Positions 8,044 through 55,508 of a DNA stretch of 64,000 bases are shown here, piece after piece. The notes beneath the pieces were generated by a model. It saw nothing but the letters and a program-made list of their open reading frames with translations. It did not search any database and had not been told where the DNA came from. The stretch spans positions 12,609 to 76,608 of the forward strand of contig CAVXVG010000024.1 of NCBI GenBank assembly GCA_963765145.1. The letters run 5' to 3'. The DNA is from Parachlamydiales bacterium (lineage in GTDB: Bacteria; Chlamydiota; Chlamydiia; Chlamydiales; JAJFMK01). A program made the translations under genes and the position numbers. How positions within the stretch are numbered: position 1 is the stretch's first letter; every line of letters starts with the position of its first letter.

Positions 8044-8118
8044 CTTTTAAGGTCCTCTTTTAACTAGATCCAGGAGTGTGTGGAGTTTGCCCTTCCTAAG
8101 CTGCAGGAAGGGTTGTAA
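8044..8118 (+). pseudogene. Diverged duplicate of the dus 3' end
   Basis: Translates LLRSSFN*IQECVEFALPKLQEGL* versus dus ILRSSFNSIQECVEFTLPQLQEGFL*. Confidence 0.9.
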
Positions 8119-10789
8119 CGTTGTTCCACATAGTCCTTATTTCCGCTTTGCACAAGGCCGCTCGTTCCCTTTCAGATCTATCTGAGAAATTTCTGAAAAT
8201 TTGGCTCATCATATTGCAATGGCTCCGAACAAAAAGTAAGCTGTCATAGGAAGTTATAAGGATGAAGTGAGAGGTTGACTGTACTCCTGTGAATATCAAG
8301 ATTTCAGTGAGCTTGAAAAGGCTGATCGACTTCATTGCAGCGGTGACATAAGGAATAGGAGGCAATAATAAGGTTACAATCTTTTGGGCAATAGCTGTAT
8401 AGACTAAAACTTTTATTCTATTGTTGAAGACATACTTATTAAGGTCTAACAAGCTATTCCCAGCCCGGATTATCTGAAGGGGGGTATTGTTAATGAGGAT
8501 GGGCATAGCATAGCCGGTAGCCTTTACAATCCTGCCATAAGATGTTGATGACAGTTTTGCTGCTCCATAGCAAGCTGCAACAGATACGACCAGCTTAAAA
8601 AGAGAGGAGCCCGTTATGTTAGCTATTGCATTTGAGAGCCTAATCAGGATGACTTTTTTCCAGGCCGGATAGGAAGACCTCTTTTGAAAGAGGCGTCGGT
8701 CTTCAAAAATTTGGAAGAGCTCTTTTGAGTTGGTGGCATAAGTGCATTCAAAAAAAGAAATTAAATATTGCTCTCTCTTTGTTAAAGTGGATGCGAATTG
8801 ATGTCTTGGGTTTTTCACATTTAGCTTATCTAAAGCCAGAGCTGCTTTTTGTTCTTGAACCTCTAAAGACGAATTTTCATTAATAATTGTGTGGAAAGGA
8901 GCAAGATCAATATCTTTAATAAACCCTCGGGCTTCAAACTGTGGTAATAATATACGGTGAGAAACAACCAGCCACTCTAGAAGAGGCAGTGGAATGCCGG
9001 TTTCATGCATCTGGTCAACATTGAATAAGCGGAAAAAATCGCTTTCTCTCAATTGGTCTTGATAGCCTTCTAATGCTACCTTAATGTCTAATTTCCCCTC
9101 TAAAATCCTTACGATGGTATCGCTTTCTAATGGAGCAATGGCTTGGATTTTTTTAACTTTTTCAAGCTCACTTAATTTGGCCGTTAAAGCAGCTGTATCA
9201 AGAGGTGCTTCATCTACAATGGCCGTTTTGAGTTGTTGTATTAAGGCGACGCCCAACTGGTTGGATAGCAATGGATATAGAGCGGCTTTTTCAGCACGGT
9301 TCCATTTTTTTTCACCCTGCCCATAAATCATCTCTTCGATTAGCTTGGTCCAATCATCCCGCTTGTCGTCTGTAGTTTTGGATAAGTTCTCTAGTGCATT
9401 AGGTAAGTGCGACTGTGCAAAGGCGACGAATGCTTGGATTCTACTGACCTGTTCTGAGGAATCGATTGTCATTGAAATAACTTCGGTAATCTTTTGAATG
9501 TGTGCTTGAGAGACAGGATAGGCCTCCTTGTTCCATTCTCTAGCATGGCTCTTGATCCAATCGATGATCTGTTCGCGGAAAATGGCCGATTTTTTGGCTT
9601 TTGCTTGGATCTGTGCAAGAATGAATTCGACCGTATATTTTTTAAAGAAGCGGTTTAGATAAATGTTAGTATCCAGAGGAGTGGAGAGATGTTCAACAAC
9701 GTTTTCAGTCCCAGGGATGGCTAATAACCGCCCTAAAGAGGCCATGTAGTTGGTATATTTGTGAGTGTCGGTTCCAAAAGATGCAGCTTCTGAATCGGCT
9801 ATTTTTTTTCTTCCATAGGCGAGGGTTTCAATCAAATTGTCTTCTAAGGTTTCTGATGAGCCGATTCCTTCTTCATAGAGGCGGTAATAGGTCCCCATGG
9901 CATCTCCCATGTAGCGAGCCCCACACCATCCTCCGGCTATGGCCAGGTCGATTACAACACGATCTCGGTCTTCTAAGAAGTTCAGGTACTGTTCTTTCTT
10001 CAGATCACTATAGTTATCTGTTTCAGCTCCATTGCTATCGATAAAATCTTGCAGAGCTTTCGTGACTCTGTATAAGGAGAGTCGGGTAGCAGCCTCTATT
10101 TGTCCGTAGAAGGCAAAAAGGGCTACCGTATCATATCCTTTAGGTGTCCCTAGAAAAGCGGTTCTCTTCTTAATGTCGTCGATATACTTTTCTAAATCTT
10201 TTTCCAATTTAGCTTGCCCACCATTTTTTGCAGGATCTCTATAACCAAGCTTTTCAGGCTGGGTAAAATTGATCTGTTTAAAGTGGGTGGCCAGTAAATC
10301 GACTTTAATGTCAGGGGGAACTTTTGAATCATCAAGAGCCAACTGTTTTGTTCTGATATGGCTCATATCCAATTGACCCGCCGAATAACGTTCTAAGTGG
10401 CCTGTTCCTTGGTGAGCGTTCGAATAAATTCGATACGTTGTTGCCAATGCACTGTATCCCATGCCCAATATCCAAAGGGCTATTTTGAAGACAGCTAAAT
10501 GGACATTTTCCGGAAGGTTGATGTCATAAGGGCCATAATAGCCAAGAACAACGTACCTAAAAGAGGCGCCTGAACTGGCAAGGGTAAAATAAACCGCTTT
10601 TGCAAAAGCAAGTGTTAGATCATGCAAAGATTGGGTGGCAAGAAGGGTGATTTGTTGAATTTGCTGATGTGTCGTAAGGACTTTGATCTCTTTTGTCCGA
10701 TCGAACTGTCTAAAATCAACCGAAAATTCAGGTGTAGTTGCTGTTGGTTGAATGAATTGAATTGTGATTGGATTTAGAGGAATTGCCAT
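8096..10789 (-). CDS. Large hypothetical protein with N- and C-terminal hydrophobic segments (possible effector)
   Basis: 897-aa uninterrupted ORF; no recognised catalytic motif. Confidence 0.7.
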   Translation of the reverse strand: MAIPLNPITIQFIQPTATTPEFSVDFRQFDRTKEIKVLTTHQQIQQITLLATQSLHDLTLAFAKAVYFTLASSGASFRYVVLGYYGPYDINLPENVHLAVFKIALWILGMGYSALATTYRIYSNAHQGTGHLERYSAGQLDMSHIRTKQLALDDSKVPPDIKVDLLATHFKQINFTQPEKLGYRDPAKNGGQAKLEKDLEKYIDDIKKRTAFLGTPKGYDTVALFAFYGQIEAATRLSLYRVTKALQDFIDSNGAETDNYSDLKKEQYLNFLEDRDRVVIDLAIAGGWCGARYMGDAMGTYYRLYEEGIGSSETLEDNLIETLAYGRKKIADSEAASFGTDTHKYTNYMASLGRLLAIPGTENVVEHLSTPLDTNIYLNRFFKKYTVEFILAQIQAKAKKSAIFREQIIDWIKSHAREWNKEAYPVSQAHIQKITEVISMTIDSSEQVSRIQAFVAFAQSHLPNALENLSKTTDDKRDDWTKLIEEMIYGQGEKKWNRAEKAALYPLLSNQLGVALIQQLKTAIVDEAPLDTAALTAKLSELEKVKKIQAIAPLESDTIVRILEGKLDIKVALEGYQDQLRESDFFRLFNVDQMHETGIPLPLLEWLVVSHRILLPQFEARGFIKDIDLAPFHTIINENSSLEVQEQKAALALDKLNVKNPRHQFASTLTKREQYLISFFECTYATNSKELFQIFEDRRLFQKRSSYPAWKKVILIRLSNAIANITGSSLFKLVVSVAACYGAAKLSSTSYGRIVKATGYAMPILINNTPLQIIRAGNSLLDLNKYVFNNRIKVLVYTAIAQKIVTLLLPPIPYVTAAMKSISLFKLTEILIFTGVQSTSHFILITSYDSLLFVRSHCNMMSQIFRNFSDRSERERAALCKAEIRTMWNNVTTLPAA

Positions 10790-10916: not shown

Positions 10917-12092
10917 GTGATGAAAGGACAAGCTGCCTCTCTCGAGGTTCAATCCTCCTCTTTGTGGACGACAGGCCTTGCCCTTTTTTCGATGTTTTTT
11001 GGAGCCGGCAACCTGATATTTCCCCTATTGATTGGCCAATCTGTAGGAGAAAATGGGTGGTATGCCATCGGTGGTCTTGGGATCACGGCTGTTCTTGTTC
11101 CTTTTTTAGGGCTTGCCGGGATGGTGTTGTTTGACGGAGATATCCACCGCTTTTTTGGCAGGTTGGGAAAAGCTCCCGGTTGGACCCTTTTGTTATTATT
11201 GCAGTTGATTTTAGGCCCTTTTGGTGTGATTCCACGGTTGGTCACCTTGATGTACGCGATGGCAAAGCCCTATCTTTTCCAACTCTCTTTGCCTGCCTTT
11301 AGTGTCGTTTGTGCTGTCGCGATTTTTCTTTTCAGTTTCCAGAGGCAAAGATTGATGAGTTTATTAGGGGGAGTGTTGACCCCGATTTTGCTTCTTTCTC
11401 TTGCTGCACTTCTCTACTTTGGTTTGACGGAGCCCTCTACATTGAACCCTGTTTCGCCTACAGCTTCGAACAGTTTTTTTGAAGGGTTGTTGGGCGGTTA
11501 CAATACGATGGATTTAATCGCGGCTTTTCTTTTTGCCACTGTTGTATTGCCCCACTTTAAAAAAGAGGCAATGAGTCAAGGCCGTTCGGTTCTGCAAAAG
11601 ATTTTGTACTCCAGTTTAATTGCCGCCGGCCTCCTTTTTTTAACTTACATAGGGCTTGCCACCGTTTCTTCGATGCATGGCTGGTCGTTGGAATCTTCCA
11701 TTCCTCAAGAAGAGTTATTAGCCGCTATCGCAACTAAATTACTAGGGCCTATAGGGGCGCTTCTTGCAGCCATGGCTGTGATCACCGCTTGCCTGACTAC
11801 AGCGATGACACTTTCCTCCATTTTTGCCGACTATCTTCAAAAAGATCTGTTAAAACAGAAGATTGGATCTACTCAAGCCCTTGCTTTGACCCTTCTGATC
11901 ACAACTCTTTTTGCCAATTTAGGTTTTAGCGGCATTGCTGCCTTTTTAGGGCCGATTTTGCAAATCTGCTATCCAGGCCTCATTGTCTTGACCTTGTTCA
12001 ACATTCTCCACCATTTCTATGGCATCCGAACAGTCAAGCTGCCAGTCTTTGTCACCTTCGCCTGTTCTGCCGCCTTCTACTTCATTGTTTAA
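10917..12092 (+). CDS. brnQ: Branched-chain amino acid transport system II carrier
   Basis: GLALFSMFFGAGNLIFP, GYNTMDLIAAF and ACLTTA motifs. Confidence 0.93.
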   Translation: MMKGQAASLEVQSSSLWTTGLALFSMFFGAGNLIFPLLIGQSVGENGWYAIGGLGITAVLVPFLGLAGMVLFDGDIHRFFGRLGKAPGWTLLLLLQLILGPFGVIPRLVTLMYAMAKPYLFQLSLPAFSVVCAVAIFLFSFQRQRLMSLLGGVLTPILLLSLAALLYFGLTEPSTLNPVSPTASNSFFEGLLGGYNTMDLIAAFLFATVVLPHFKKEAMSQGRSVLQKILYSSLIAAGLLFLTYIGLATVSSMHGWSLESSIPQEELLAAIATKLLGPIGALLAAMAVITACLTTAMTLSSIFADYLQKDLLKQKIGSTQALALTLLITTLFANLGFSGIAAFLGPILQICYPGLIVLTLFNILHHFYGIRTVKLPVFVTFACSAAFYFIV

Positions 12093-12151
12093 AAGAGGTT
12101 GTGAAAAACTCTGAATCAGGAACATGATCGCCCTCACGAAAGGCGTTTCTC

Positions 12152-15100
12152 ATGTTCAACAGAGTCTGTTTTTTGGTCCTCATCTTGGGTGCTCTTGCAG
12201 CTGAAGAAGAGAGGATTGCCCACTTTGAAGGGTCTCCATCCGGTATAGCTGCAGGATGGGTCAATGTGATCTCAGGATCTATTGTCCATCAAGAAACCGA
12301 CCTGATCATTCCGGGAATTGAACCGCTTCAAATCTCTCGATCGCCTCTTTATGCGCCAGGCTATTTCCCCAAAGATAAGGTAAAAGAGAGCTGGAATTTC
12401 TCTTTTAAAGAAACTCTTCAACGGCAAATGGATAATGGAAGAGAGAATCTGGTTGTACACCAAGGTTCTCAAGAGCTGCTCAGTTTTAAAAATGGCGATC
12501 CCCATAATCCTGAAAAGAGGTTTTTTAAATCATCGGATCATCCAAGAGGATATACTAACCAAGCTGCAGGACCTCGACCAACTGGACAAACCGCTTTAAA
12601 AAACTATTGGGTGAATCGGGGCTCTCCTCACTGGATGACTCTTACTTCAGGGTCTGGGGAAGTGAGAGACTATCAGGGCAATCCTGCTCAATCGTCCAAA
12701 AAAGATGTTTGGCTGCCTTTAAAAGAGGTTATAAAGCCAAACGGCTTTCGCTACTTCATTGGATATGACCGGAACAATGAAAAACAAGGGGTCACCTTAA
12801 AAACTCCAAGTGGAAGAGAGGTGGCTTTCTATCTTGCTGACGACAAGGGAGATGCCCTTTCCATCACATCATTTGATGACCGTTCTGTCCAATATCAATT
12901 CCAAAAAATGGGTGGAAGAAATGGATCGACGTTTAGGTTTTTAAAAGGGGTAGAAAGAAGCGATAGCCCCTCCGTTCAGTATGAATATGTCACAGACGAT
13001 CTTCAAAATGGGCAACTCAAAAAAATCCAATATCCTGAAGACCGCGCCATCTCGTTTCAGTATTGGAACAGCAATAGCGAAAAAAACAACCGCTCTAGTC
13101 TTAAGGTTAAGACCCTTTATCAACCTGCAGGGACAAATTCAACCCCAATTGCAACACACACTTTTGCCTACTACACCAAAGATAAAGAGAGAAGTGGCTG
13201 GACCGATGTCATCGACTTCGAAGGTAACAAAGATGTTTACCTGTTTGATGCCGACTATCGGCTGCGAGAGGTCAGAAACTACAAAGGGTTGTCAGAAAAG
13301 CACTTTGTGGAAACATTTTTTTGGGACAAAGAGGGGCAACTGACTTTATCTGCCTTGTCAGATGGTCACGACAACCCTCTCCGCGCAAAATCGTATGGCT
13401 ATTCGGATAAGAGAGGCAATGCGACTGAAGAAAGGGAGTTTGGAAATCTAACAGGAGAGGGAAAAGCCCTCCCACAAATAGATCATAACGGCCATTTTAA
13501 CCAAAGTGGATTAGAAAGTTACGGCTCCTATTTTGACTATTCGAACGATAAAAACCTTCTTGTAAAAGAGCGACATGAAAATGGGATCACTATCCTCTGT
13601 AGCTATAAGGAGGGGACTAATCTTGTCGCGGAGAAGAAAACATTTGCTCATGAATTTTGTGTAAAAAGCGAAACATTTACTTATGACGGAGAGCACCGTC
13701 TTATTGAAACAACTGAGGATGACGGTGAACGAAAAACCATCGTCCGCTTAGCCCCACTCGAAAGGCCTTTTGGCTATCCCCAAGAGAAAAAGATCATTGG
13801 CTGGAGCCAGGAGACCGGAGAGGTTTTTCTAGAGTCTTATCACTACACTTACAATGTACGCGGCGATATTACCTCAGAAGAAAAACGGGACAGCCAAGGA
13901 AGATCGGTTTATAAAATCGAGCGGACCTATGACGGACATGGCAACTGCACTCAAGAAAAAAACGCAGTTGGCGATATCATTAGACGGCTATTTGACCTCA
14001 ACGACAACTGCATCCGAGAAGAAGGGCCTCGTGTTGGCCTTGTCAAAACATTCAGCTACGACTGGATGAATCGATGCACTCAGGAAACGGTTACCTACCT
14101 AGGTGAAGTTACCAAAAGAGACCATGCGTATAACAAGCGAGGGAATAGAACCTCAACTGTGGATCCTTTTGGACAGATCACCCGGTTCACAGTTGATCGT
14201 TTCGGAAATCAGGTCCGTATCGAGTTGCCCCCCGTTCTTGTGGATGGCATAGAAAAAATACCGGTGATCCAACAAAGCTTTGACCATTTCGGAAATGTTC
14301 TGACTGCTACCGACCCGCTGGGGTACACCACACAGAAAAAGTACACTTCACGAAACAAACCCTGCTTTATTGAACACCCTGATGGGACCTCCGAACATTT
14401 TCTCTACACCCGTGATGGCCACCTTTCCCAAACCATCGATCAAGAAGAGGTTAAAACACGTTATCACTGGGATCCTTTAGGAAGGCTTCAGGCCAAAGAG
14501 ACGCCCTTTGGCATAGAATATTTCCATTACAAAGGGATGTTGCTCGAGCGCTCCTTCGACCTAGCAGGTGTAGAAACCCATTACAAATATGACCCATTTG
14601 GAAGGTTAACTGAGACCAGATGCGGCAACCGCAAAGAGACGATTGTATACGATGTTTATGGATACCCTGGTCGTAAAAGCTATTACGAAGAAGATCGGCT
14701 ACTGAAAACAGATGTGACCTGTTATGACGCACTGAAAAGGGTGGTTGAAACCTATGTGGAAGACCCAACAGGTGCCATATTCTGCCCTAAACGGTTTGAA
14801 TATGATGGTGCTGGCAACTGCATTGTCGAATGGGATGACGCTGCAAAAACAGTCAAAACTTACGACGGCGAAAACCGTGTAGTTAAGCTGGTAGACCCGT
14901 TAGGAAATGTCTACCAGATCGATTATCGAAAGGGTTCTGTTCTTGAAAAAACGGTCATCGATCCTTTAGGGCAAAAGGTTGTCACTCTTTACAATACGCA
15001 TGGGAAAGAGGCGAAAATCTCCCATTTTGACAACTTCGGCATTGAGCTGTCGTCGAAAACCCTCTTCTACAACCTTGCAGGCCATCTCGAAAAAGAGGAG

Positions 15101-17260
15101 ACCAAAGCTGATGGGGTTCTACAAACCCTGCTTTATCAACGCGATTCGATGGGAAGAGTCATCGCCTTAATAGAACCTCTTCGAAAAATCACAACAAGCA
15201 AATACACCTCAGGTAAGCTTGCTGTTTTGACCAAGCCTGATGGAGTGCAATTACTTCACACGTATGATCGAGGCAGACTTGCGAGCTTGAAAAGTTCTGA
15301 TGGCAAACTGGCCTATACCTATTCTTACTCTCCTCGAGGAGAGCTTTTGGAGGTTTTAGATGAATTGACAGGCTTTTGCTCGAGACAAGCGTTTTCTATC
15401 CATGGGGATTTAGTAGAAGAGGCGTTGCCAACAGGGCAAACCATCAACTATCAACACGACGGACTTGGGCGTATCATTTCTTACCGGCTTCCGGACGGTG
15501 GAGAAGTTGCCATGGAGCACAATGCCATCGTAGCAACATCCATTACCCGTTATGATCAAAAGAAAAATCTTCTTTATACGCATGCTTATACATCTTTTAA
15601 TCAACGGGGAGATGTTGAAGAACAGCAATTGATCGGGACTGCCGGAAAAATCAACTGTACTTTTGATGAGATGTACCAACTGAAAGGGGCTGTTCATCCA
15701 CGCTACAAGCAAGAAGAGTTGATGTATGATGCGGTAGGAAATCTTCTTTCGTATCGCTTGAATGGAGAAAGCTATCGCTTTTCTTATGATAGCCTCTACC
15801 AACTGACAGAAGAAAAAGGGCATTCCTATTCTTTCGATGCCCTTCATAACAGACGGTCAAAAGATGAGGATCTCTACCAACTCAATGAACTAAATCAACT
15901 GACAGCTGCCGGTGCCTATCATTACACTTACGACCCCAATGGGAATTTGATCCAAGCTGACAACGGACATGAAACCTTACGATTTGGGTATGACCCTCTT
16001 AACCGTCTGATTTTTATTCAAAAAGGGGAACATCAAGTCCACTTCAAATACGATCCATTTAATAGACGGATTTCACAAAATGGAAAGCCCTTCTACTTTT
16101 TTGGTCATCAAGAGATTGGAGATGAGCGATCGCTTCGTATTTTGGGTTTAGGTCTTGGAGCCGATGTTGGAGCAGCTGTAGCCCTTGAGCTCGATGGGCA
16201 GATTTACGCTCCTCTTCACGACCATAACGGTAGCATCACAGCCCTTCTCGACCTTGAGGGCAATCTAGTCGAAGAGTGGAGCTACACTGCCTTTGGTGAG
16301 CAAATTGGCACCACCTCATCTCCTTGGACCTTTTCTTCGAAACGGCACAATCCGCTCACAGGCTGGCTCTCCTTTGGTCGGCGTGATTATGACCCGGAAA
16401 CAGGCCGTTGGACCACCCCAGACCCCCTCGGCTTTGCCGACGGCCCCAACCTCTATGCCTATGTCTCCAACCGCCCCCTCACCCACCGCGACCCGTTAGG
16501 CCTCTTCGAGATTCCTTCAGTCCAAGGACCGCCATATATAACCGAATGGGTTCCTCAAAACCACAATGGAAGCTTTCCTCAGGTCCGTTTTTTCCAAGAT
16601 TTTGAAGCGATGGCAGGTCAATATCAAGGGAATGGAGAGAGATCCAGCATCTTTTCTGTTGGCCATGTAGAAGTGCCAAATAGGGGTGTCGGTTTTATGC
16701 CTGGGATCTTAAACGATAAAAAAGGGACTTCTGAGTCTAGCAATTACATTTCGACTCTAATTGGAGGTGTTAAACTGGATGTGTACCATAACAGTACCCA
16801 TGGTGTTGGACTCGATCTTGCTGAGTGTGATTTTGGGAAAAAGAATATCGCAACGACACCTGTACAACTTCTCCATAGAGGGTGGAGCGATTTTTTCGCG
16901 AAAAACCCCAACGGCTATTATCTCATGTACTGCCACAGCCAAGGGGCGATCCATGTAATGAATGCCCTCATCACTTTTGACAGAGAATTAGCCAAACGGA
17001 TTCAAGTTGTTGCAATTGCCCCCGGCGCCTATATTTATGAGCAATCGTGTGGGAGCGTTGTGCATTATAGAGCTAAGTCGTCGTTAAGAGACCCCATAGC
17101 CCATGGCAGTGATAAGCCTGGAGCCATCAGAGAAGCCGAAACAATCAGAGAGGTTGCATCGCATTGGGATGCCCCTTACCTTGACCATACCATTCTCAGT
17201 CCGACCTATAAGAGACCCATACAGATTGAAGCAAGAAAATTCTTTGGAAACAGGTGGTAA
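12152..17260 (+). CDS. RHS/YD-repeat polymorphic toxin with signal peptide and C-terminal alpha/beta-hydrolase (DUF687-like) domain
   Basis: YD repeats, RHS core FGRRDYDPETGRWTTPDPLG..NLYAYVSNRPLTHRDPLGL, C-terminal CHSQGA nucleophile elbow. Confidence 0.9.
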   Translation: MFNRVCFLVLILGALAAEEERIAHFEGSPSGIAAGWVNVISGSIVHQETDLIIPGIEPLQISRSPLYAPGYFPKDKVKESWNFSFKETLQRQMDNGRENLVVHQGSQELLSFKNGDPHNPEKRFFKSSDHPRGYTNQAAGPRPTGQTALKNYWVNRGSPHWMTLTSGSGEVRDYQGNPAQSSKKDVWLPLKEVIKPNGFRYFIGYDRNNEKQGVTLKTPSGREVAFYLADDKGDALSITSFDDRSVQYQFQKMGGRNGSTFRFLKGVERSDSPSVQYEYVTDDLQNGQLKKIQYPEDRAISFQYWNSNSEKNNRSSLKVKTLYQPAGTNSTPIATHTFAYYTKDKERSGWTDVIDFEGNKDVYLFDADYRLREVRNYKGLSEKHFVETFFWDKEGQLTLSALSDGHDNPLRAKSYGYSDKRGNATEEREFGNLTGEGKALPQIDHNGHFNQSGLESYGSYFDYSNDKNLLVKERHENGITILCSYKEGTNLVAEKKTFAHEFCVKSETFTYDGEHRLIETTEDDGERKTIVRLAPLERPFGYPQEKKIIGWSQETGEVFLESYHYTYNVRGDITSEEKRDSQGRSVYKIERTYDGHGNCTQEKNAVGDIIRRLFDLNDNCIREEGPRVGLVKTFSYDWMNRCTQETVTYLGEVTKRDHAYNKRGNRTSTVDPFGQITRFTVDRFGNQVRIELPPVLVDGIEKIPVIQQSFDHFGNVLTATDPLGYTTQKKYTSRNKPCFIEHPDGTSEHFLYTRDGHLSQTIDQEEVKTRYHWDPLGRLQAKETPFGIEYFHYKGMLLERSFDLAGVETHYKYDPFGRLTETRCGNRKETIVYDVYGYPGRKSYYEEDRLLKTDVTCYDALKRVVETYVEDPTGAIFCPKRFEYDGAGNCIVEWDDAAKTVKTYDGENRVVKLVDPLGNVYQIDYRKGSVLEKTVIDPLGQKVVTLYNTHGKEAKISHFDNFGIELSSKTLFYNLAGHLEKEETKADGVLQTLLYQRDSMGRVIALIEPLRKITTSKYTSGKLAVLTKPDGVQLLHTYDRGRLASLKSSDGKLAYTYSYSPRGELLEVLDELTGFCSRQAFSIHGDLVEEALPTGQTINYQHDGLGRIISYRLPDGGEVAMEHNAIVATSITRYDQKKNLLYTHAYTSFNQRGDVEEQQLIGTAGKINCTFDEMYQLKGAVHPRYKQEELMYDAVGNLLSYRLNGESYRFSYDSLYQLTEEKGHSYSFDALHNRRSKDEDLYQLNELNQLTAAGAYHYTYDPNGNLIQADNGHETLRFGYDPLNRLIFIQKGEHQVHFKYDPFNRRISQNGKPFYFFGHQEIGDERSLRILGLGLGADVGAAVALELDGQIYAPLHDHNGSITALLDLEGNLVEEWSYTAFGEQIGTTSSPWTFSSKRHNPLTGWLSFGRRDYDPETGRWTTPDPLGFADGPNLYAYVSNRPLTHRDPLGLFEIPSVQGPPYITEWVPQNHNGSFPQVRFFQDFEAMAGQYQGNGERSSIFSVGHVEVPNRGVGFMPGILNDKKGTSESSNYISTLIGGVKLDVYHNSTHGVGLDLAECDFGKKNIATTPVQLLHRGWSDFFAKNPNGYYLMYCHSQGAIHVMNALITFDRELAKRIQVVAIAPGAYIYEQSCGSVVHYRAKSSLRDPIAHGSDKPGAIREAETIREVASHWDAPYLDHTILSPTYKRPIQIEARKFFGNRW

Positions 17261-17773
17261 ATGAGTATTATTTTAATTCTAATGTTTAGTCTTTTTAATT
17301 CTAATCCTCCTGATACATACCGACATCCTGAGCATATAAAAGTTGCTCATGCCATCCAGAATGAAGTAGGAGATCGCCTTGAAAAGCGCCACAAAATGGA
17401 AAATATAGGTCAATGTGGAGCTTTATTTGACAAGATTAATGGCCTTGGCTTTAGGTTTCAGGCGATAGGGCCTAAAACTAAAGAAGAGTTGCGAGGAATA
17501 TTAGTTGACTGCACTGAGGAATTGGTAAATGCAGTAAACCAAACTGAAGGCATTGCTCAGCATCTTGGTTCTTACCCATTTTCTTTTGACAAGGTCGATC
17601 TAGCTATTTTTTTAAATGATGATCGGGGCTATGAAATTCATTATCCTTCGTATGGTGTAGTTGGTATTACCCAAGGAGTATTGCATTATCACACTGATGA
17701 AAAAGGAGGAATGGGGTACAAAACTACCGAATCTGAAAGCTATGAAGAGGCTTTAAAGGTACTTGGCAGGTAA
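17261..17773 (+). CDS. Putative cognate immunity protein 1
   Basis: Starts immediately after the RHS stop; N-terminal hydrophobic signal; paralogous to the next genes. Confidence 0.7.
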   Translation: MSIILILMFSLFNSNPPDTYRHPEHIKVAHAIQNEVGDRLEKRHKMENIGQCGALFDKINGLGFRFQAIGPKTKEELRGILVDCTEELVNAVNQTEGIAQHLGSYPFSFDKVDLAIFLNDDRGYEIHYPSYGVVGITQGVLHYHTDEKGGMGYKTTESESYEEALKVLGR

Positions 17774-17774
17774 C

Positions 17775-17872
17775 TTCGCAAAGCGTTTGGAGTGCTAAAC
17801 TCCTGTTTAGCTTTGACTTATCAGTGAAAGTGAAAGCTAAACAGGAGTTTAGCACTCCAAACGCTTCGCGAA
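17775..17872. repeat. Palindromic element family A (REPIN-like), copy 1
   Basis: 40-bp inverted arms TTCGCAAAGCGTTTGGAGTGCTAAACTCCTGTTTAGCTTT (1 mismatch), each with inner hairpin GCTAAAC-N4-GTTTAGC. Confidence 0.95.
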
Positions 17873-17912
17873 AAAAATTGAATCTAGCTCGTAAAACCTG
17901 GAATTGACATTC

Positions 17913-18425
17913 ATGATTTTCATCTTATTTTTGTTGCTTAGCTTTTTTAATTCTAATCCTCCTGATACGTATCAAACTCCAATGCATATAAAAGTTGCTG
18001 ACTCGATTCAGGAGGCGGTGGGAGACCGCCTTGCAGCGCGTCATAAAATGAAACTCATAGGCCAATCTGGGGCTCTGTTTGGAACAATCAATGAGCTCGG
18101 TTTTAGATTCCAGATCACTGGACCTAAAACTAAAGAAGAATTGCGGGAAATATTAGTTGATTGTACTGAAGAACTGGTCAATGCGGTCAACCAAACTGAA
18201 GGAATTAGTCAATACCTCCCTTCATACCCATTTACCATAGAACAAGCAGACATTGATGTTTTTCTGTATGACGAACAAAATGGCGATCTCATTTACCCTC
18301 TATATTGCACGGCAGGCATAAATCAAGGACGTTTGCAATTTTACACCGTTGATAAATACGGAATGGGGTATAAAACGAGAGAATCTGAAAGCTATGAAGA
18401 GGCTTTAAAGGCGCTTGGCAGGTAA
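17913..18425 (+). CDS. Putative immunity paralogue 2
   Basis: Shares FNSNPPDTY, GPKTKEELR, ESESYEEALK.LGR with copy 1. Confidence 0.75.
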   Translation: MIFILFLLLSFFNSNPPDTYQTPMHIKVADSIQEAVGDRLAARHKMKLIGQSGALFGTINELGFRFQITGPKTKEELREILVDCTEELVNAVNQTEGISQYLPSYPFTIEQADIDVFLYDEQNGDLIYPLYCTAGINQGRLQFYTVDKYGMGYKTRESESYEEALKALGR

Positions 18426-18426
18426 C

Positions 18427-18524
18427 CTCGCAACGCGTTTGGAGTGCTAAACTCCTGTTTAGCTTTGACTTGTCAGTGAAAGTGAAAGCGCAACAAGAGT
18501 TGCGCACTCCAAACGCTTCGCGAA
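18427..18524. repeat. Palindromic element family A, copy 2 (variant right arm)
   Basis: Right inner hairpin reads GCGCAAC-AAGA-GTTGCGC. Confidence 0.95.
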
Positions 18525-18564
18525 AAAAATTGAATCTAGCTCGTAAAACCTGGAATTGACATTC

Positions 18565-19077
18565 ATGATTTTCATCTTATTTTTGTTGCTTAGTTTTTTT
18601 AATTCTAATCCTCCTGATACGTATCAAACTCCAATGCATATAAAAGTTGCTGACTCGATTCAGGAGGCGGTGGGAGACCGCCTTGCAGCGCGTCACCAAA
18701 TGGAAAATATAGGTCAATGCGGAGCTCTATTTGACAAGATTAATAGTCTTGGATTTAGATTCCAGATCACTGGACCTAAAACTAAAGAAGAATTGCGGGA
18801 AATATTAGTTGATTGTACTGAAGATTTGGTCAATGCAGTGAACCAAACTGAAGGGATTAGCCAATATCTTCCCTCTTACCCATTTACCATAGAACAAGCG
18901 GACATTGCTATTTTTCTGCGAGACAAACAAAATGGCGATCTCATTTACCCTCTATATTGCACGGCAGGCATAAATCAAGGACGCTTGCAATTTTACACCG
19001 TTGATAAATACGGAATGGGATACAAAACGAGAGAATCTGAAAGCTATGAAGAGGCTTTAAAGGCGCTTGGCAGGTAA
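18565..19077 (+). CDS. Putative immunity paralogue 3 (mosaic of copies 1 and 2)
   Basis: 652 bp downstream of copy 2 and nearly identical, except MENIGQCGALFDKIN as in copy 1. Confidence 0.75.
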   Translation: MIFILFLLLSFFNSNPPDTYQTPMHIKVADSIQEAVGDRLAARHQMENIGQCGALFDKINSLGFRFQITGPKTKEELREILVDCTEDLVNAVNQTEGISQYLPSYPFTIEQADIAIFLRDKQNGDLIYPLYCTAGINQGRLQFYTVDKYGMGYKTRESESYEEALKALGR

Positions 19078-19078
19078 C

Positions 19079-19176
19079 CTCGCAACGCGTTTGGAGTGCT
19101 AAACTCCTGTTTAGCTTTGACTTGTCAGTGAAAGTGAAAGCGCAACAAGAGTTGCGCACTCCAAACGCTTCGCGAA
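19079..19176. repeat. Palindromic element family A, copy 3
   Basis: Same as copy 2, offset 652 bp. Confidence 0.95.
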
Positions 19177-19216
19177 AAAAATTGAATCTAGCTCGTAAAA
19201 CCTGGAATTGAAATTC

Positions 19217-19415
19217 ATGATTTTCATCTGATAAGGTAGGTATTGGTATTTTCCTGCGTGACAAGGAGAACGGTGATATTCTTTTTCCTCTATATTGCGC
19301 AGCAGGTATATGTCATGGAGAGTTGGGATATTTCACGCGCGACAAGGCTGGAATGGGTTACAAAACGACCGAATACGAAAGCTATGAAGAGGCTTTAAAG
19401 GTACTTGGCAGGTAA
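19217..19415 (+). pseudogene. Immunity paralogue 4 with internal deletion
   Basis: ATG ATT TTC ATC TGA joined out of frame to DKVGIGIFLRDKENGDILFPLYCAAG..YESYEEALKVLGR*; unit is 338 bp instead of 652. Confidence 0.85.
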
Positions 19416-19416
19416 C

Positions 19417-19513
19417 TTCGCAAAGCGTTTGGAGTGCTAAACTCCTGTTTAGCTTTGACTTATCAGTGAAAGTGAAAGCTAAACGGGCTCAGGAGCACTC
19501 CAAACGCTTCGCG
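19417..19513. repeat. Palindromic element family A, copy 4
   Basis: Left arm as copy 1, altered right arm. Confidence 0.9.
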
Positions 19514-19546
19514 GATGGGTAATGTTGCTTTAATTGGGGAAAGAAG

Positions 19547-20551
19547 ATGCCGTTGAAAATGTATGAAGAGCCAATGTCTGGCGTGAAACAGATTGTGGCG
19601 ATTGCTGCTGGAAAAGGGGGAGTGGGGAAGTCGACTGTGACGGTTGGGCTGGCTCATGCTCTGGTGGCAATGGGTTTTCGGGTGGGAATTCTGGATGCAG
19701 ACGTCTATGGCCCTTCGATTCGAAAAATGGTTGGGGATGGAGAGCTGCCCTATAAGGAGGGAGACAAGCTGTTTCCGGCCATGGCAAACGGGATAAAAGT
19801 GATGTCGATGGCCTTTTTCCGGAAGGATGGGCAGGCCGATGCGGTTCGGGCTCCTGTTGCAAGCAGTATCGTGACCCAGTTTTTAAAAGAGATACAGTGG
19901 GGGCAGCTTGATTTTCTCCTGATCGACTTTCCACCCGGCACAGGCGATATCCAATTGACCCTCTGTCAGCAGGCTAAATTGAGGGGCGCCGTAATGGTGA
20001 CAACCCCTCAGGAAGTGGCTGTCATGGATGTGAGAAAGGCGATTAACCTATTCCAAAAAGTACACGTGCCGATTTTAGGGATTGTCGAGAACATGAGTTA
20101 TTACCTTGTGAACCAAACACCTCATTATTTGTTTGGTCAGGGAGGGGGAAAACGGTTAGCGAATGAGGTATCAGTTCCCCTTTTAGCTGACATTCCGATC
20201 GATCCAGAAATAGGCAAAGCCATGGAAGAAGGAAGGTCTTTTTCTCACACCTCTTTTGTCACGTTGGCTAAACTCTTGGTTGGACAAACTGCAGAACGTC
20301 ATGCGATCTCGTTTTACCAGAAGGATCGACACCACTTAGTCGTCGAATGGGAAAATGGAGTGCCAGAAACATACCGTTTTGCAGATCTACAAAAACGTTG
20401 TCCATGCGCTGCTTGCGACAAACCCTTAGTCGATGAAGAGGTCGGTGCGACCTCTGTGGAAGCAGTTGGCCGTTATGCCTTGAAAATCAAATTCACTTCC
20501 GGCTGCTCAAGCGGCCTCTATCCTTTTGAGTTTCTGCATAGTTTGCGTTAG
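19547..20551 (+). CDS. mrp: Mrp/NBP35 Fe-S cluster carrier ATPase with C-terminal DUF971-like domain
   Basis: GKGGVGKST, DADVYGPS, DFPPGTGD, VENMS; C-terminal RCPCAAC..VGRYALKIKF..SGLYPFEFL. Confidence 0.9.
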   Translation: MPLKMYEEPMSGVKQIVAIAAGKGGVGKSTVTVGLAHALVAMGFRVGILDADVYGPSIRKMVGDGELPYKEGDKLFPAMANGIKVMSMAFFRKDGQADAVRAPVASSIVTQFLKEIQWGQLDFLLIDFPPGTGDIQLTLCQQAKLRGAVMVTTPQEVAVMDVRKAINLFQKVHVPILGIVENMSYYLVNQTPHYLFGQGGGKRLANEVSVPLLADIPIDPEIGKAMEEGRSFSHTSFVTLAKLLVGQTAERHAISFYQKDRHHLVVEWENGVPETYRFADLQKRCPCAACDKPLVDEEVGATSVEAVGRYALKIKFTSGCSSGLYPFEFLHSLR

Positions 20552-20567
20552 TTAAGCATCTTTGTAT

Positions 20568-20666
20568 TTCGCGAAGCGTTTGGAGTGCTAAACTCCTGTT
20601 TAGCTTTCATTTTTCACTGATAAGTCAAAGCTAAACAGGAGTTTAGCACTCCAAACGCTTCGCGAA
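20568..20666. repeat. Palindromic element family A, copy 5 (loop in opposite orientation)
   Basis: Perfect arms; loop is a near reverse complement of the copy 1 loop. Confidence 0.95.
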
Positions 20667-20668
20667 AA

Positions 20669-20716
20669 AAACTCCCTCTTGATTCGTATTCGAGAATCGG
20701 GAATAAAGGAATTTTT
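20669..20716 (+). promoter_or_regulatory. nuoA upstream motif (putative promoter/operator, GATTC-N8-GAATC dyad)
   Basis: AAACTCCCTCTTGATTCGTATTCGAGAATCGGGAATAAAGG; near copy upstream of nuoF and partial copies inside the island. Confidence 0.55.
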
Positions 20717-21070
20717 ATGTCCGATTATGACTCGCTCTACCTTTATTTAGGTTTCATCGCCTTAGTGACACTTCTTGTTGTCTCTCTTTCTGCCCTTTTT
20801 CCTGCCAGAAAAAACAAGGTGAAGTCGATGCCTTACGAATCGGGCATGTTGACTCAAACCCATCTATTGCAAGAGCGATTCCCCCTTCAACACTATCTTG
20901 TCGGCCTGATTTTCTTGATATTAGATGTTGAGGTTGTGTTCCTTTATCCGTGGGCTGTTGTAGGCAAATCGATCGGAGCTTTTGCTTTTTGGGAAATGGC
21001 CTTTTTTTTAGTCGCCCTTTTAGTTGGGTTTACCTACGTTTGGAAAAAAGGAGGGTTAAAATGGGAATGA
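20717..21070 (+). CDS. nuoA: NADH-quinone oxidoreductase subunit A
   Basis: [29 protein letters not shown]. Confidence 0.95.
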
Positions 21071-23622: not shown

Positions 23623-24585
23623 TTATAACAATGAGCGTAGGCTATTTAAGCGCTCCTTAACTTGATGCCAAGTTGGATATTTTCCAAAGCATAGTATGCG
23701 GCACTGCTTTTCGAATTCTGAGGAAATCATCTCTTCCAATTCTCCTGAGGGAAATAAGGCGTCGCTTTTTGAGAATCTCATGTCAGGTGGTGGTATGTAA
23801 CTTGCTTTGAAAAATTCACTGCTGACACTGTCGTAATCAATCTTAATTGTCTCATATTCACTAGACCGAAGCATGTCATGAACTTCTAGACGCTCCGCTA
23901 AGCAATATAAATCATAGTAATGGCGAGCATATCCACCAATCCCTATTCCAGATCTTTTAAATGTTTCAACTTTGGCATGGATAGCAAACATCTTTTCTAC
24001 AAAGGTTCGCCGAAAGTGCAACAGCCGCATCTCAAACGGCTCCTCATCCTCTGCTCCAAGACTAATGTCTGTTTCATGAAGGAATTGCCCCACATAGGAT
24101 TGCAGTTTTATGGTGTTAGTAGGTTCTTTGCCACTTGCAGTGCCGACTTCAACAAGCACGCGATTGCGAATTTCCCCAGCTCCGGCAAACTTTTGAGGGT
24201 ATTCGAAATGGTCAGCACGTCCAAAACCACCAATAGTTTGACTTTCCTCCTCGATAAACTTCAGCCTGGGATGTTTTTCAATAGCTTGTCGCAGGCTCTT
24301 TAACTCACGATTAATGGCGTTTTTTCCTAAGCGAGGATCAAAAGCCATCGGGTCAAAAAAAATATCAATGTCTTCAGAAAATCTTTGTATGAGGTCCCAC
24401 CCTTTCGAAAGGCTTGTCCCACCTTTAAAAAGTACCTTGTCTCCAACGGTCTGATTGATAACGCGCAATGCTTCAGTTACGTAGTAGTCCTTTTCGATCA
24501 TAGCTTCACGCATGCCCAACAAGCTAAAATGCTCTGTAGCACGAGTGATGGCCTGCTCAAAATCTTCGTGTTCAAATAGCTTCAT
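23623..24585 (-). CDS. AbiEii/AbiGii-family nucleotidyltransferase toxin (type IV TA)
   Basis: IEKDYYV, FKGGTSLSK..IQRFSEDIDI, RTFVEK, RHYYDL. Confidence 0.9.
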   Translation of the reverse strand: MKLFEHEDFEQAITRATEHFSLLGMREAMIEKDYYVTEALRVINQTVGDKVLFKGGTSLSKGWDLIQRFSEDIDIFFDPMAFDPRLGKNAINRELKSLRQAIEKHPRLKFIEEESQTIGGFGRADHFEYPQKFAGAGEIRNRVLVEVGTASGKEPTNTIKLQSYVGQFLHETDISLGAEDEEPFEMRLLHFRRTFVEKMFAIHAKVETFKRSGIGIGGYARHYYDLYCLAERLEVHDMLRSSEYETIKIDYDSVSSEFFKASYIPPPDMRFSKSDALFPSGELEEMISSEFEKQCRILCFGKYPTWHQVKERLNSLRSLL

Positions 24586-25333
24586 GAAGATTCCGCTCCT
24601 TTGCTTGCCACTGTTTAGCATATTTTAAAGCTGATAAATTACCAAAATCAAACCTAGAAAGTGGGTTAAGGCTTTTTCTCAGATAACGAAGTTGTTGCTC
24701 AGAGCGTCCAAGTTGTTGTCCTATTGCACCAAAAATTGCGCGAACGCGAGGCGGTTCTAATATAGCAACTTTAAGAAGGCGGTCGAATTGCGCTGATTCA
24801 CGAAAGCACTCGAGTAACTTACTAACCGTACCATTGGATGAGAGTTCACTAGTCAACCCACGGTTGCGAATGAAATCTAGAATGGCTGCATCTCTAGAAG
24901 AAAGTTTTTGCCATGCCTCAGGACGCCTAGTGTGTATGATAGTATCTTTTCCAACGATTTGACGAGGCAGGCTGAGTCCTGTTGTAGCTATCTCTATTCT
25001 TGCTGGGTTCTGCGAGCTAAACCCGAGCAAATTTGCTGCTGCATGCCCTGCAGGAAAGACTTTTCTGCCGGATATGGGTAAGGCACGGATCAAATTACTA
25101 CTAACTGTGCTTTGTCCAAATACGGTTGGCCTTGGCCTATAGTATAAGCCTTTACCAATACGCTGAATAATTCCTTTGCGAGATAGACGAGATAATGCTT
25201 GCGCTGTTGCAGTAAATGATAACTTTTCAAAGTCAGCTAAGCGCCAAACTCTCTCTCCTTCTGCTTCAATGCGAAGAAGGACTTTTTCAGCAATGCTTCT
25301 TGCTGGTCTAGTTTTCTTTCCTTTATCTCTCAT
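24572..25333 (-). CDS. AbiEi-like antitoxin (DUF6088-type wHTH)
   Basis: QALSRLSRKGIIQRIGKGLYYRP, AANLLGFSSQNPA; overlaps the toxin start. Confidence 0.8.
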   Translation of the reverse strand: MRDKGKKTRPARSIAEKVLLRIEAEGERVWRLADFEKLSFTATAQALSRLSRKGIIQRIGKGLYYRPRPTVFGQSTVSSNLIRALPISGRKVFPAGHAAANLLGFSSQNPARIEIATTGLSLPRQIVGKDTIIHTRRPEAWQKLSSRDAAILDFIRNRGLTSELSSNGTVSKLLECFRESAQFDRLLKVAILEPPRVRAIFGAIGQQLGRSEQQLRYLRKSLNPLSRFDFGNLSALKYAKQWQAKERNLHEAI

Positions 25334-55411: not shown

Positions 55412-55508
55412 TTCGCAACGCGTTTGGAGTGCTAAACTCCTGTTTAGCTTTCACTTTTACTGAGAAGTCAAAGCTAAACAGGAGTTTAGCACTCCAAACG
55501 CTTCGCGA
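55412..55508. repeat. Palindromic element family A, copy 6
   Basis: Same arms as copies 1 and 5. Confidence 0.95.

Follow-up and report, generated by a model that had tools for sequence, protein, structure and literature searches.

We analysed a 64,000-nucleotide stretch (the window) of contig CAVXVG010000024.1 from a Parachlamydiales bacterium, whose 2.68-Mb assembly is 84.8% complete and is called G000 below, with C-labels for its contigs. In this window, a gene for an RHS protein with a C-terminal hydrolase tip is followed by a tandem array of small partner genes, each with a long hairpin right behind its stop codon. We believe, with a probability of about 0.7, that this is a polymorphic toxin locus with a new family of immunity genes, in which a repertoire of alleles recombines homologously and the hairpin, a copy of a dispersed repetitive extragenic palindromic doublet (REPIN), is a passenger. 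The locus bears the marks of polymorphic toxins, namely YD repeats, a DPxG core, variable tips on related cores and a tip-linked small gene. A first-pass annotation of this DNA had put forward the idea of a toxin with an immunity repertoire, and that idea holds up well on the genomic evidence, which comprises pairing, co-variation, old alleles and recurrent arrays.

Pairing and co-variation were assessed in relatives, of which 60 were sampled. The tip profile matched 54 of the 60, and the partner was present in 36 of them at 69 loci, 22 of which held two or more copies; these multicopy loci were spread over 18 of the 36 genomes, and one genome (G033) had six partner copies in a row. Of 102 partner matches, a count that leaves out the rows of G000 and one unlisted tip match, 84 had a tip no more than 4 kb upstream on the same strand, and for 57 the distance was 300 nt or less. 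The partner frame overlapped or abutted the RHS stop codon in 20 of 22 loci, the gaps in the other two being 9 and 544 nt, and remnants of the tip 3′ end were found among the partner copies of several relatives. In G000, a family member lies behind all three hydrolase-tipped RHS genes and behind none of three whose tip is of another kind. When 22 loci were compared, the similarity of partners tracked that of the tips (rho 0.62; partial 0.64, permutation p 0.0005) and not that of the cores (rho -0.20), with tip and core uncorrelated. Such co-variation with the tip, not the core, is the pattern of putative tip-immunity cassettes.

The features of the locus, in window positions, are as follows.

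10917 to 12092, plus strand: brnQ-type transporter, left flank (PF05525).
12152 to 17260, plus strand: RHS protein of 1,702 amino acids (aa) with hydrophobic N-terminus, YD repeats and an RHS core ending in DPLG at residue 1450 (PF05593, TIGR03696).
16502 to 17257, plus strand: C-terminal tip of 252 aa, an alpha/beta hydrolase with predicted triad S1596/D1647/H1679, Tox-ABhydrolase-2-like and DUF687-related (alignment, model).
17261 to 17773, plus strand: partner gene 1, 170 aa, its ATG abutting the RHS stop; likely the cognate immunity gene (open reading frame (ORF), relatives, co-variation).
17775 to 17872, no strand: REPIN copy 1, symmetric arms (repeat search, folding).
17873 to 17912, plus strand: spacer of 40 nt that recurs before units 2 to 4; its sigma-70-like -35 match is not above chance.
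17913 to 18425, plus strand: partner gene 2, 170 aa from ATG (173 from the TTG at 17904), 66% identical to gene 1.
18427 to 18524, no strand: REPIN copy 2, hybrid right arm.
18565 to 19077, plus strand: partner gene 3, a mosaic that is gene 2-like save for a gene 1-like patch near codons 41-61.
19079 to 19176, no strand: REPIN copy 3, with the hybrid right arm that copy 2 also has.
19217 to 19415, plus strand: unit 4, a remnant with an internal deletion, whose 61 C-terminal codons are nearest to the contig C18 paralogue (161/183 nt).
19417 to 19513, no strand: REPIN copy 4, third right-arm variant.
19547 to 20551, plus strand: mrp/NUBPL-type ATPase, right flank (PF10609).
20568 to 20666, no strand: REPIN copy outside the array, behind mrp, with its loop oppositely oriented (repeat search, folding).

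The array has four repeat units with spacings of 652, 652 and 338, and every unit ends in LGR and a stop codon, with a palindrome of 97-98 nt beginning 1-2 nt further on; unit alignment bore out this arrangement as the first-pass annotation had given it. Its "same ~98-bp hairpin" stands for the left arms, which agree, and not for the right arms, which come in three variants. Likewise, of the four paralogous genes with hydrophobic N-termini that it listed, three are intact and the fourth is a deletion remnant: 314 nt are missing from unit 4, the frame that opens with the ATG at 19217 meets a stop after four codons, and the hydrophobic N-terminus is gone. The unit 4 junction was spanned without a difference by one contig piece of run X9, which may be the source of the assembly or a near twin. 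Promoter-like sites were not above chance (4 found, 5.2 expected), and Rfam gave no match within 11000-21000 of the window.

The RHS ORF matched PF05593 with an E-value of 3e-51 and TIGR03696 at residues 1378-1451, and the previously reported RHS protein with a CHSQGA tip after DPLG corresponds to this ORF of 1,702 aa, with DPLG at residue 1450 and a tip of 252 aa. What had been called a signal peptide stands as a hydrophobic N-terminus in a Kyte-Doolittle scan, with no dedicated signal-peptide prediction behind it. S146, D197 and H229 (tip numbering) were invariant in all 25 aligned tips, and the tip was modelled as a lidless alpha/beta hydrolase fold with a predicted local distance difference test (pLDDT) score of 89.8. 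An RHS cage, the core motif and a hydrolase tip with intact triad are thus seen in the sequence and the predicted model. The structures nearest to the tip model, at Z 12-14, were thioesterases, cutinases, esterases and lipases, with none of these classes ahead; the earlier label "lipase-like" is not singled out, since several hydrolase classes tie. A search of solved structures with the tip profile returned nothing below E 0.01. The nucleophile motif in the window is CHSQG, and the family consensus is without the glycine two positions before the serine. An NG motif occurs in 20 of 24 tips covering that column, the window's own tip having PG. DUF687 was matched by 14 of the 25 tips (best E 4e-13), the shared profile positions being about 52-163; the RHS tips, represented by 16502-17257 of the window and with intact triad, are homologous to the dead hydrolase domain of the DUF687 (PF05095) predicted Inc proteins of Chlamydia. 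VgrG (PF04717) had no match in the 84.8% complete G000 assembly.

Tips vary on related RHS cores. The paralogue on contig C5 (C5:129750-134813) has 52% core identity to the window RHS, yet carries an unrelated tip; this gene and one of G001, a complete genome of the same genus (locus L053), have closely related RHS cores with other tips behind a common pre-toxin segment, and a separate small gene lies downstream of each. The G001 core most similar to that of the window (68%) bears a divergent tip and partner, and the most similar tip and partner (70% and 75%) are placed elsewhere in that genome as an orphan pair. A second hydrolase-tipped RHS gene of G000 (C21:217002-226918, L136) has a divergent partner with a REPIN at +9, followed by a decayed tip-partner pair and an IS200-type gene.

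The partner family is large. Its profile collected 4,024 clusters at 50% identity, and the top matches were often fusions of 2-4 domains; two- to four-fold fused partner domains were seen in P0009-P0012 and at L038:7269-9521, resembling the polyimmunity proteins, or multi-domain immunity fusions, known from the available text of Zhang et al. (PMC3482391). The members with names are chlamydial, and a search of the Atlas gave only unnamed Chlamydiota clusters. Because one member (WP_154017656.1) was found in a named species, Criblamydia sequanensis, the family is open to testing. In Pfam, no family was common to more than 1 of 49 partner members, and the SUKH models matched none of the 49 at E 0.05; NCBIfam gave nothing for five members, and a plasmid search with the partner gave no match. 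The partner model (pLDDT 93.4) had no Foldseek match at E 0.001, its best hits (Z 8.0) being unrelated, uninformative small alpha/beta domains. A hydrophobic N-terminus was present in 137 of 150 members, which points to action outside the cytoplasm, and a crude scan found a lipobox-like motif in 30. When the tip (residues 25-252) was co-folded with one of the three paralogues, partner 1, the score was 0.02 against a mark of 0.32; controls were not folded, and the score was used neither way. No description of this family surfaced in the literature searched, in which coverage of subscription journals was limited.

The array copies are old mosaic alleles with recently homogenised ends, as in staphylococcal esaG arrays. 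Synonymous divergence (dS) between genes 1 and 2 was 1.56, three times the tip dS against L068 (0.51), a metagenomic relative. Among five alleles, 64 informative sites were clustered in patches (permutation p 5e-5), and the mosaic breakpoints fall inside the genes, not at the hairpin. The variable segments of the partner lie at residues of about 41-61 and 108-149. Synonymous differences between genes 1 and 2 were found in 0 of 12 codons beside the hairpin versus 39 of 92 in the gene body; L068 and G001, which are without the +2 hairpin, showed synonymous differences to gene 1 in 3 of 11 codons and 4 of 12 codons of the same end, respectively. Genes 2 and 3 share 92% DNA identity. Because the ratio of non-synonymous to synonymous divergence (dN/dS) was about 0.14-0.27 in all ten allele pairs, the partner alleles were under purifying selection. 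In related peat populations, seen as assembled contigs only, the tip is followed by just one gene, which resembles gene 1, gene 2 or a gene 3/unit 4 hybrid. The simplest account of these sequences would be one REPIN insertion, duplication of spacer, gene and REPIN, and swapping of the gene bodies that lie between the conserved end blocks. The hairpin may aid recombination passively, because it forms ~98 nt of homogenised block between units.

A different view of the same genes, which we consider unlikely, is that the tip is a host-directed effector, hydrolysing lipids or thioesters of the protist host or the inclusion, that the partner is a self-protector or chaperone during export, and that the arrays reflect tip turnover. 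The 14 tips matching DUF687 favour this view, as DUF687 proteins are listed among predicted inclusion-membrane proteins in the available part of PMC3048545, and near-universal presence in relatives fits a lifestyle function; Zhang et al., in the text available of PMC3482391, proposed a host target for the Parachlamydia member. However, a pure self-protector gives no reason for old non-cognate alleles, orphan pairs and multi-domain fusions. Moreover, DUF687 proteins are described in the accessible portion of PMC11878206 as dead hydrolases without catalytic residues, anchored in the membrane by a transmembrane bundle, unlike the tips here, which are fused to RHS with the triad intact.

The first-pass annotation had also held that the hairpins delimit or drive a cassette-like array. 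This was contradicted by the relatives, which show the same arrays hairpin-free. We fetched 20 relative loci, picked for best matches and tandem copies, and none of their 47 partner genes had a strong hairpin behind it, the lowest energy being -40.0 kcal/mol versus -51.7 to -73.8 in five G000 copies. Most of the fetched genomes are without the repeat, and therefore the sharper test is given by genomes holding both repeat and partner; in these, partner genes linked to the repeat numbered 0 of 8 in G393 (including a tandem pair), 0 of 2 in G248 and 0 of 2 in G001. The marks of an integron fail, since the site is not confined to the array and the units are all of one gene family, not unrelated cassettes.

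The brnQ-rhs-mrp interval, whose comparison among relatives the first-pass annotation had suggested, holds four other genes in G001, with no RHS and no hairpin. One of the four genes in this G001 interval (L051:4455-13302) has a ubiquitin C-terminal hydrolase domain, and brnQ is broken there into two frames. Effector-type genes seem to have a hot spot in this interval. In L068, the module is found in front of ddl; it has one partner, and a REPIN sits 43 nt away in opposite orientation. L068 and G001 have one partner copy each, and neither is in the same strain group as G000. On contig C18 of G000 (C18:80600-85400), a tip 3′ end is followed by one gene, a REPIN, a truncated gene fused to a duplicated piece of ddl, and a gene of 1,122 aa, with a short palindrome at the left edge. 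A gene plus hairpin acting as a mobile cassette was considered for this copy and rejected: it lies between the tip 3′ remnant and the ddl piece, where L068 has the full module. Because the same place holds the whole module in L068, the C18 copy probably remains from an earlier site of the module.

The hairpin itself is a dispersed repeat. The array hairpins of units 1, 2 and 4 folded far better than shuffles (z -6.5 to -13.6), and blastn found 190 loci of the repeat in G000, including a sixth copy in the window at 55412-55508. Searching for single arms yielded 168 left and 173 right ones, with 91 intact elements, 89 of which lie between called ORFs, while 42 further arm pairs were outside intact spacing and mostly split by insertions. 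Each arm has a stem of seven pairs and a 4-nt loop, and the whole element folds as one hairpin, which is the anatomy of a REPIN. The exact arm pattern was found in 3 of 401 genomes of the phylum, with degenerate copies in G001, and the motif of this repeat is not shown in the available part of PMC3733652. In G393 (C24, L120), an ORF scoring above the cut-off of the REP-transposase model NF047646 (86.9 vs 80) is directly followed by two copies of the repeat. This REP-associated tyrosine transposase (RAYT) has no close homologue in the 84.8% complete G000 assembly, the best match being 25%, and of the Y1 transposases that G000 does have, only one has an arm within 3 kb, at a distance of 2 kb. 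A function as a plain terminator was rejected for the hairpin, since the coding strand has an A run or no run after the long stem, not U. REPs within 15 nt of a stop codon can lower translation in E. coli (PMC12306157, in its available text, citing Liang 2015), and by analogy the array hairpin may damp translation.

It has also to be asked whether the REPIN is an active hinge, at whose hairpins the RAYT cuts and rejoins single strands, leading to excision, duplication and swapping of spacer-gene-arm units. We regard this as improbable, and as equally improbable its widest form, a selfish REPIN recruited as the recombination hinge of the immunity array, where its HUH transposase builds and reshuffles antidote alleles for a toxin war among chlamydiae that share host cells, with the tip family also ancestral to the dead DUF687 proteins. 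In favour of a hinge, hybrid arms that arose in two independent events are present in three of the four array copies, a RAYT accompanies the repeat in G393, the block around the hairpin was recently homogenised, and the repeat recurs behind family members at C18, C21 and L068. However, hybrid arms were found in 20 of 88 scored intact elements, only 3 of these being in the array, and are thus common elsewhere (17 of 85). Forty-three arms are no more than 5 nt away from a stop codon, and 74 of 2,323 crudely called genes have an arm within 15 nt. Against these genome-wide baselines for stop codons and hybrid arms, the +2 position and the hybrid arms of the array are ordinary. Of 45 adjacent paralogue pairs in G000, 5 have an element between them, 3 of which are of the partner family; because only 2 of the 42 other pairs hold a copy, tandem arrays and the repeat have no general link. 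Mosaic breakpoints lie inside genes and arrays form hairpin-free, and G393 has the repeat, its RAYT and eight partner genes including the tandem pair, yet shows no link. In G000, besides the lack of a close homologue of the G393 RAYT, two other RAYTs have no arm within 3 kb. The probability given above for the favoured reading overlaps with that of the hinge, which shares its repertoire part.

Neutral tandem duplication of gene and hairpin, followed by drift with no repertoire function, would fit the decay of unit 4 and of the second C18 copy and the 92% DNA identity of genes 2 and 3, but it is very improbable given that the gene bodies are far older than the flanks, that purifying selection is seen in all ten pairs, and that arrays recur in half of the 36 genomes with a partner.

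REPIN arms in G000 are themselves targets of other mobile DNA. An IS5-type DDE element (PF13737, split into two frames; for example C29:69607-70720, L134) and its non-autonomous derivatives of 100-470 nt insert into REPIN arms, and 28 of the 42 widely spaced arm pairs hold an insert of this kind, 20 of the 28 with an exact 9-bp duplication. We take its terminal repeat to resemble that of IS903. A REP-targeting element of the IS5 group may be unusual. An IS110-family transposase (PF01548, PF02371) at C18:60087-61700 (L135) occupies the same 9-mer of the REPIN arm, and its end motif was found at five places, each next to that 9-mer (the C18 copy, C27:238112, C29:29275, C29:48882 and C29:153242). 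Some of the miniature inserts, as at C2:72902-73179, enclose a second palindrome family, giving three nested layers of mobile DNA; this second family resembles the palindromes flanking the IS200-type tnpA at C21:218940-219404.

In the favoured reading of a toxin locus with an immunity repertoire, the RHS protein would be exported by Sec, cleave itself at the core and release the tip, as known RHS biology suggests. The tip would hydrolyse envelope esters, most likely lipids, of rivals that are probably related chlamydiae in the same host cell. The partner would bind and block the tip outside the cytoplasm, to judge from its position, N-terminal signal and co-variation. Gene 1 would cover the locus's own tip; genes 2 and 3, whose alleles are like those beside variant tips in related populations, would presumably protect as well. 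One REPIN would have inserted right behind the stop codon in this lineage, with spacer, gene and REPIN being duplicated afterwards, and gene bodies would have been swapped between the conserved ends, where mosaicism and homogenised ends are observed.

Several points weigh against this reading. Toxicity, enzyme activity and protection remain predictions from sequence and models. Chlamydiae are intracellular and often inclusion-bound, so that how a rival is reached is not evident, and Zhang et al. suggested a host target for the Parachlamydia member (PMC3482391, available text). The pairing of 84 of 102 matches is partly circular, because the tip profile was built from loci found via the partner. 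Eighteen of the 102 partners are without a nearby tip, some of them at contig ends, and a single-protein search found the partner for only 36 of 77 tips in frames of at least 1,000 aa. Linked transfer alone could yield co-variation between neighbours, and there is dependence among the 22 loci. The tip family also has standalone members, signal-peptide hydrolases that lack a partner, as in the C21 region (L136). As to the passenger role of the hairpin, a REPIN lies behind family members at three separate places (+2 in the window, +9 on C21, +43 in L068), which is above the 3-5% baseline, the numbers being very small.

Parts of this locus are known already, namely RHS proteins with hydrolase tips, homogeneous immunity arrays with recombination, and REPINs. 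The large chlamydial partner family and its near-universal pairing are new as far as searched, within limited literature coverage. In the available text of Zhang et al. 2012 (PMC3482391), Tox-ABhydrolase-2 is described on RHS proteins, with chlamydiae among the carriers, without a specific link to lipases; SUKH is listed as its immunity protein, and the Parachlamydia member is said to have none. Our locus is similar in its RHS repeats and its HSxG, D and H motifs, and 20 of 24 family tips have the NG-type motif, a likeness that concerns the motifs as described there; it differs in the PG that the window's own tip has at the NG position and in that the partner is a family nameless in Pfam and NCBIfam, not SUKH, and is found in many chlamydial families. 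The same available text reports loci with at least four immunity genes from proteobacteria, bacteroidetes, firmicutes and actinobacteria alone, and the six-copy chlamydial row of G033 differs from that taxon range. With the esaG and tipC arrays (Garrett et al. 2022, PMC9484751, as far as its text was available), the array shares tandem non-identical paralogues behind a toxin, conserved gene ends with a variable middle, recombination between genes, copies in decay and leftover toxin 3′ ends. Those arrays belong to firmicute type VII secretion, unlike the chlamydial Sec-type RHS system here, with its unrelated proteins and a REPIN within the homology block.

Tle and Tli are lipase effector-immunity pairs of type VI secretion, the effectors having a GxSxG nucleophile and the immunity genes being exported and often duplicated. 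The locus resembles them in its alpha/beta-hydrolase effector and its predicted exported, duplicated immunity genes, and differs in the RHS fusion with an N-terminal signal, in having CHSQG instead of GxSxG, and in the absence of a Tle/Tli Pfam match. REPINs were reportedly described by Bertels and Rainey in 2011 as paired inverted short palindromes with many extragenic copies, a RAYT nearby and a role as insertion-sequence targets. The repeat is like them in its inverted palindromic pair, its dispersed extragenic copies, the RAYT beside copies in G393 and its use by insertion sequences; unlike those described, it is a patchy chlamydial family, and its RAYT was not found in the G000 assembly.

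Two further genes of the window were recorded. At 8096-10789, upstream of brnQ, lies a protein of 897 aa without a Pfam match; its position is conserved in G001, but there it is divided between two frames. At 23623-24621, on the opposite strand, a gene of 332 aa interrupts the nuo cluster after nuoE; by eye it presumably encodes an AbiEii-type nucleotidyltransferase.

The hairpin array itself is a strain-level curiosity. The DUF687 link suggests a function class for predicted Inc proteins, and the partner family in the sampled chlamydiae revises the 2012 statement, in the available text of PMC3482391, that the chlamydial member has no immunity protein. In the accessible part of PMC6520448, polymorphic toxins are one scenario for how chlamydial symbionts restrict other bacteria in amoebae, and the tip-partner pair is a concrete candidate for that question. 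Chlamydiae are usually viewed as host manipulators, not as fighting each other. If the favoured reading is true, a tip in 54 of 60 relatives, a partner family of ~4,000 clusters and recurrent arrays would together be genomic evidence of routine warfare against kin or rivals among intracellular chlamydiae.

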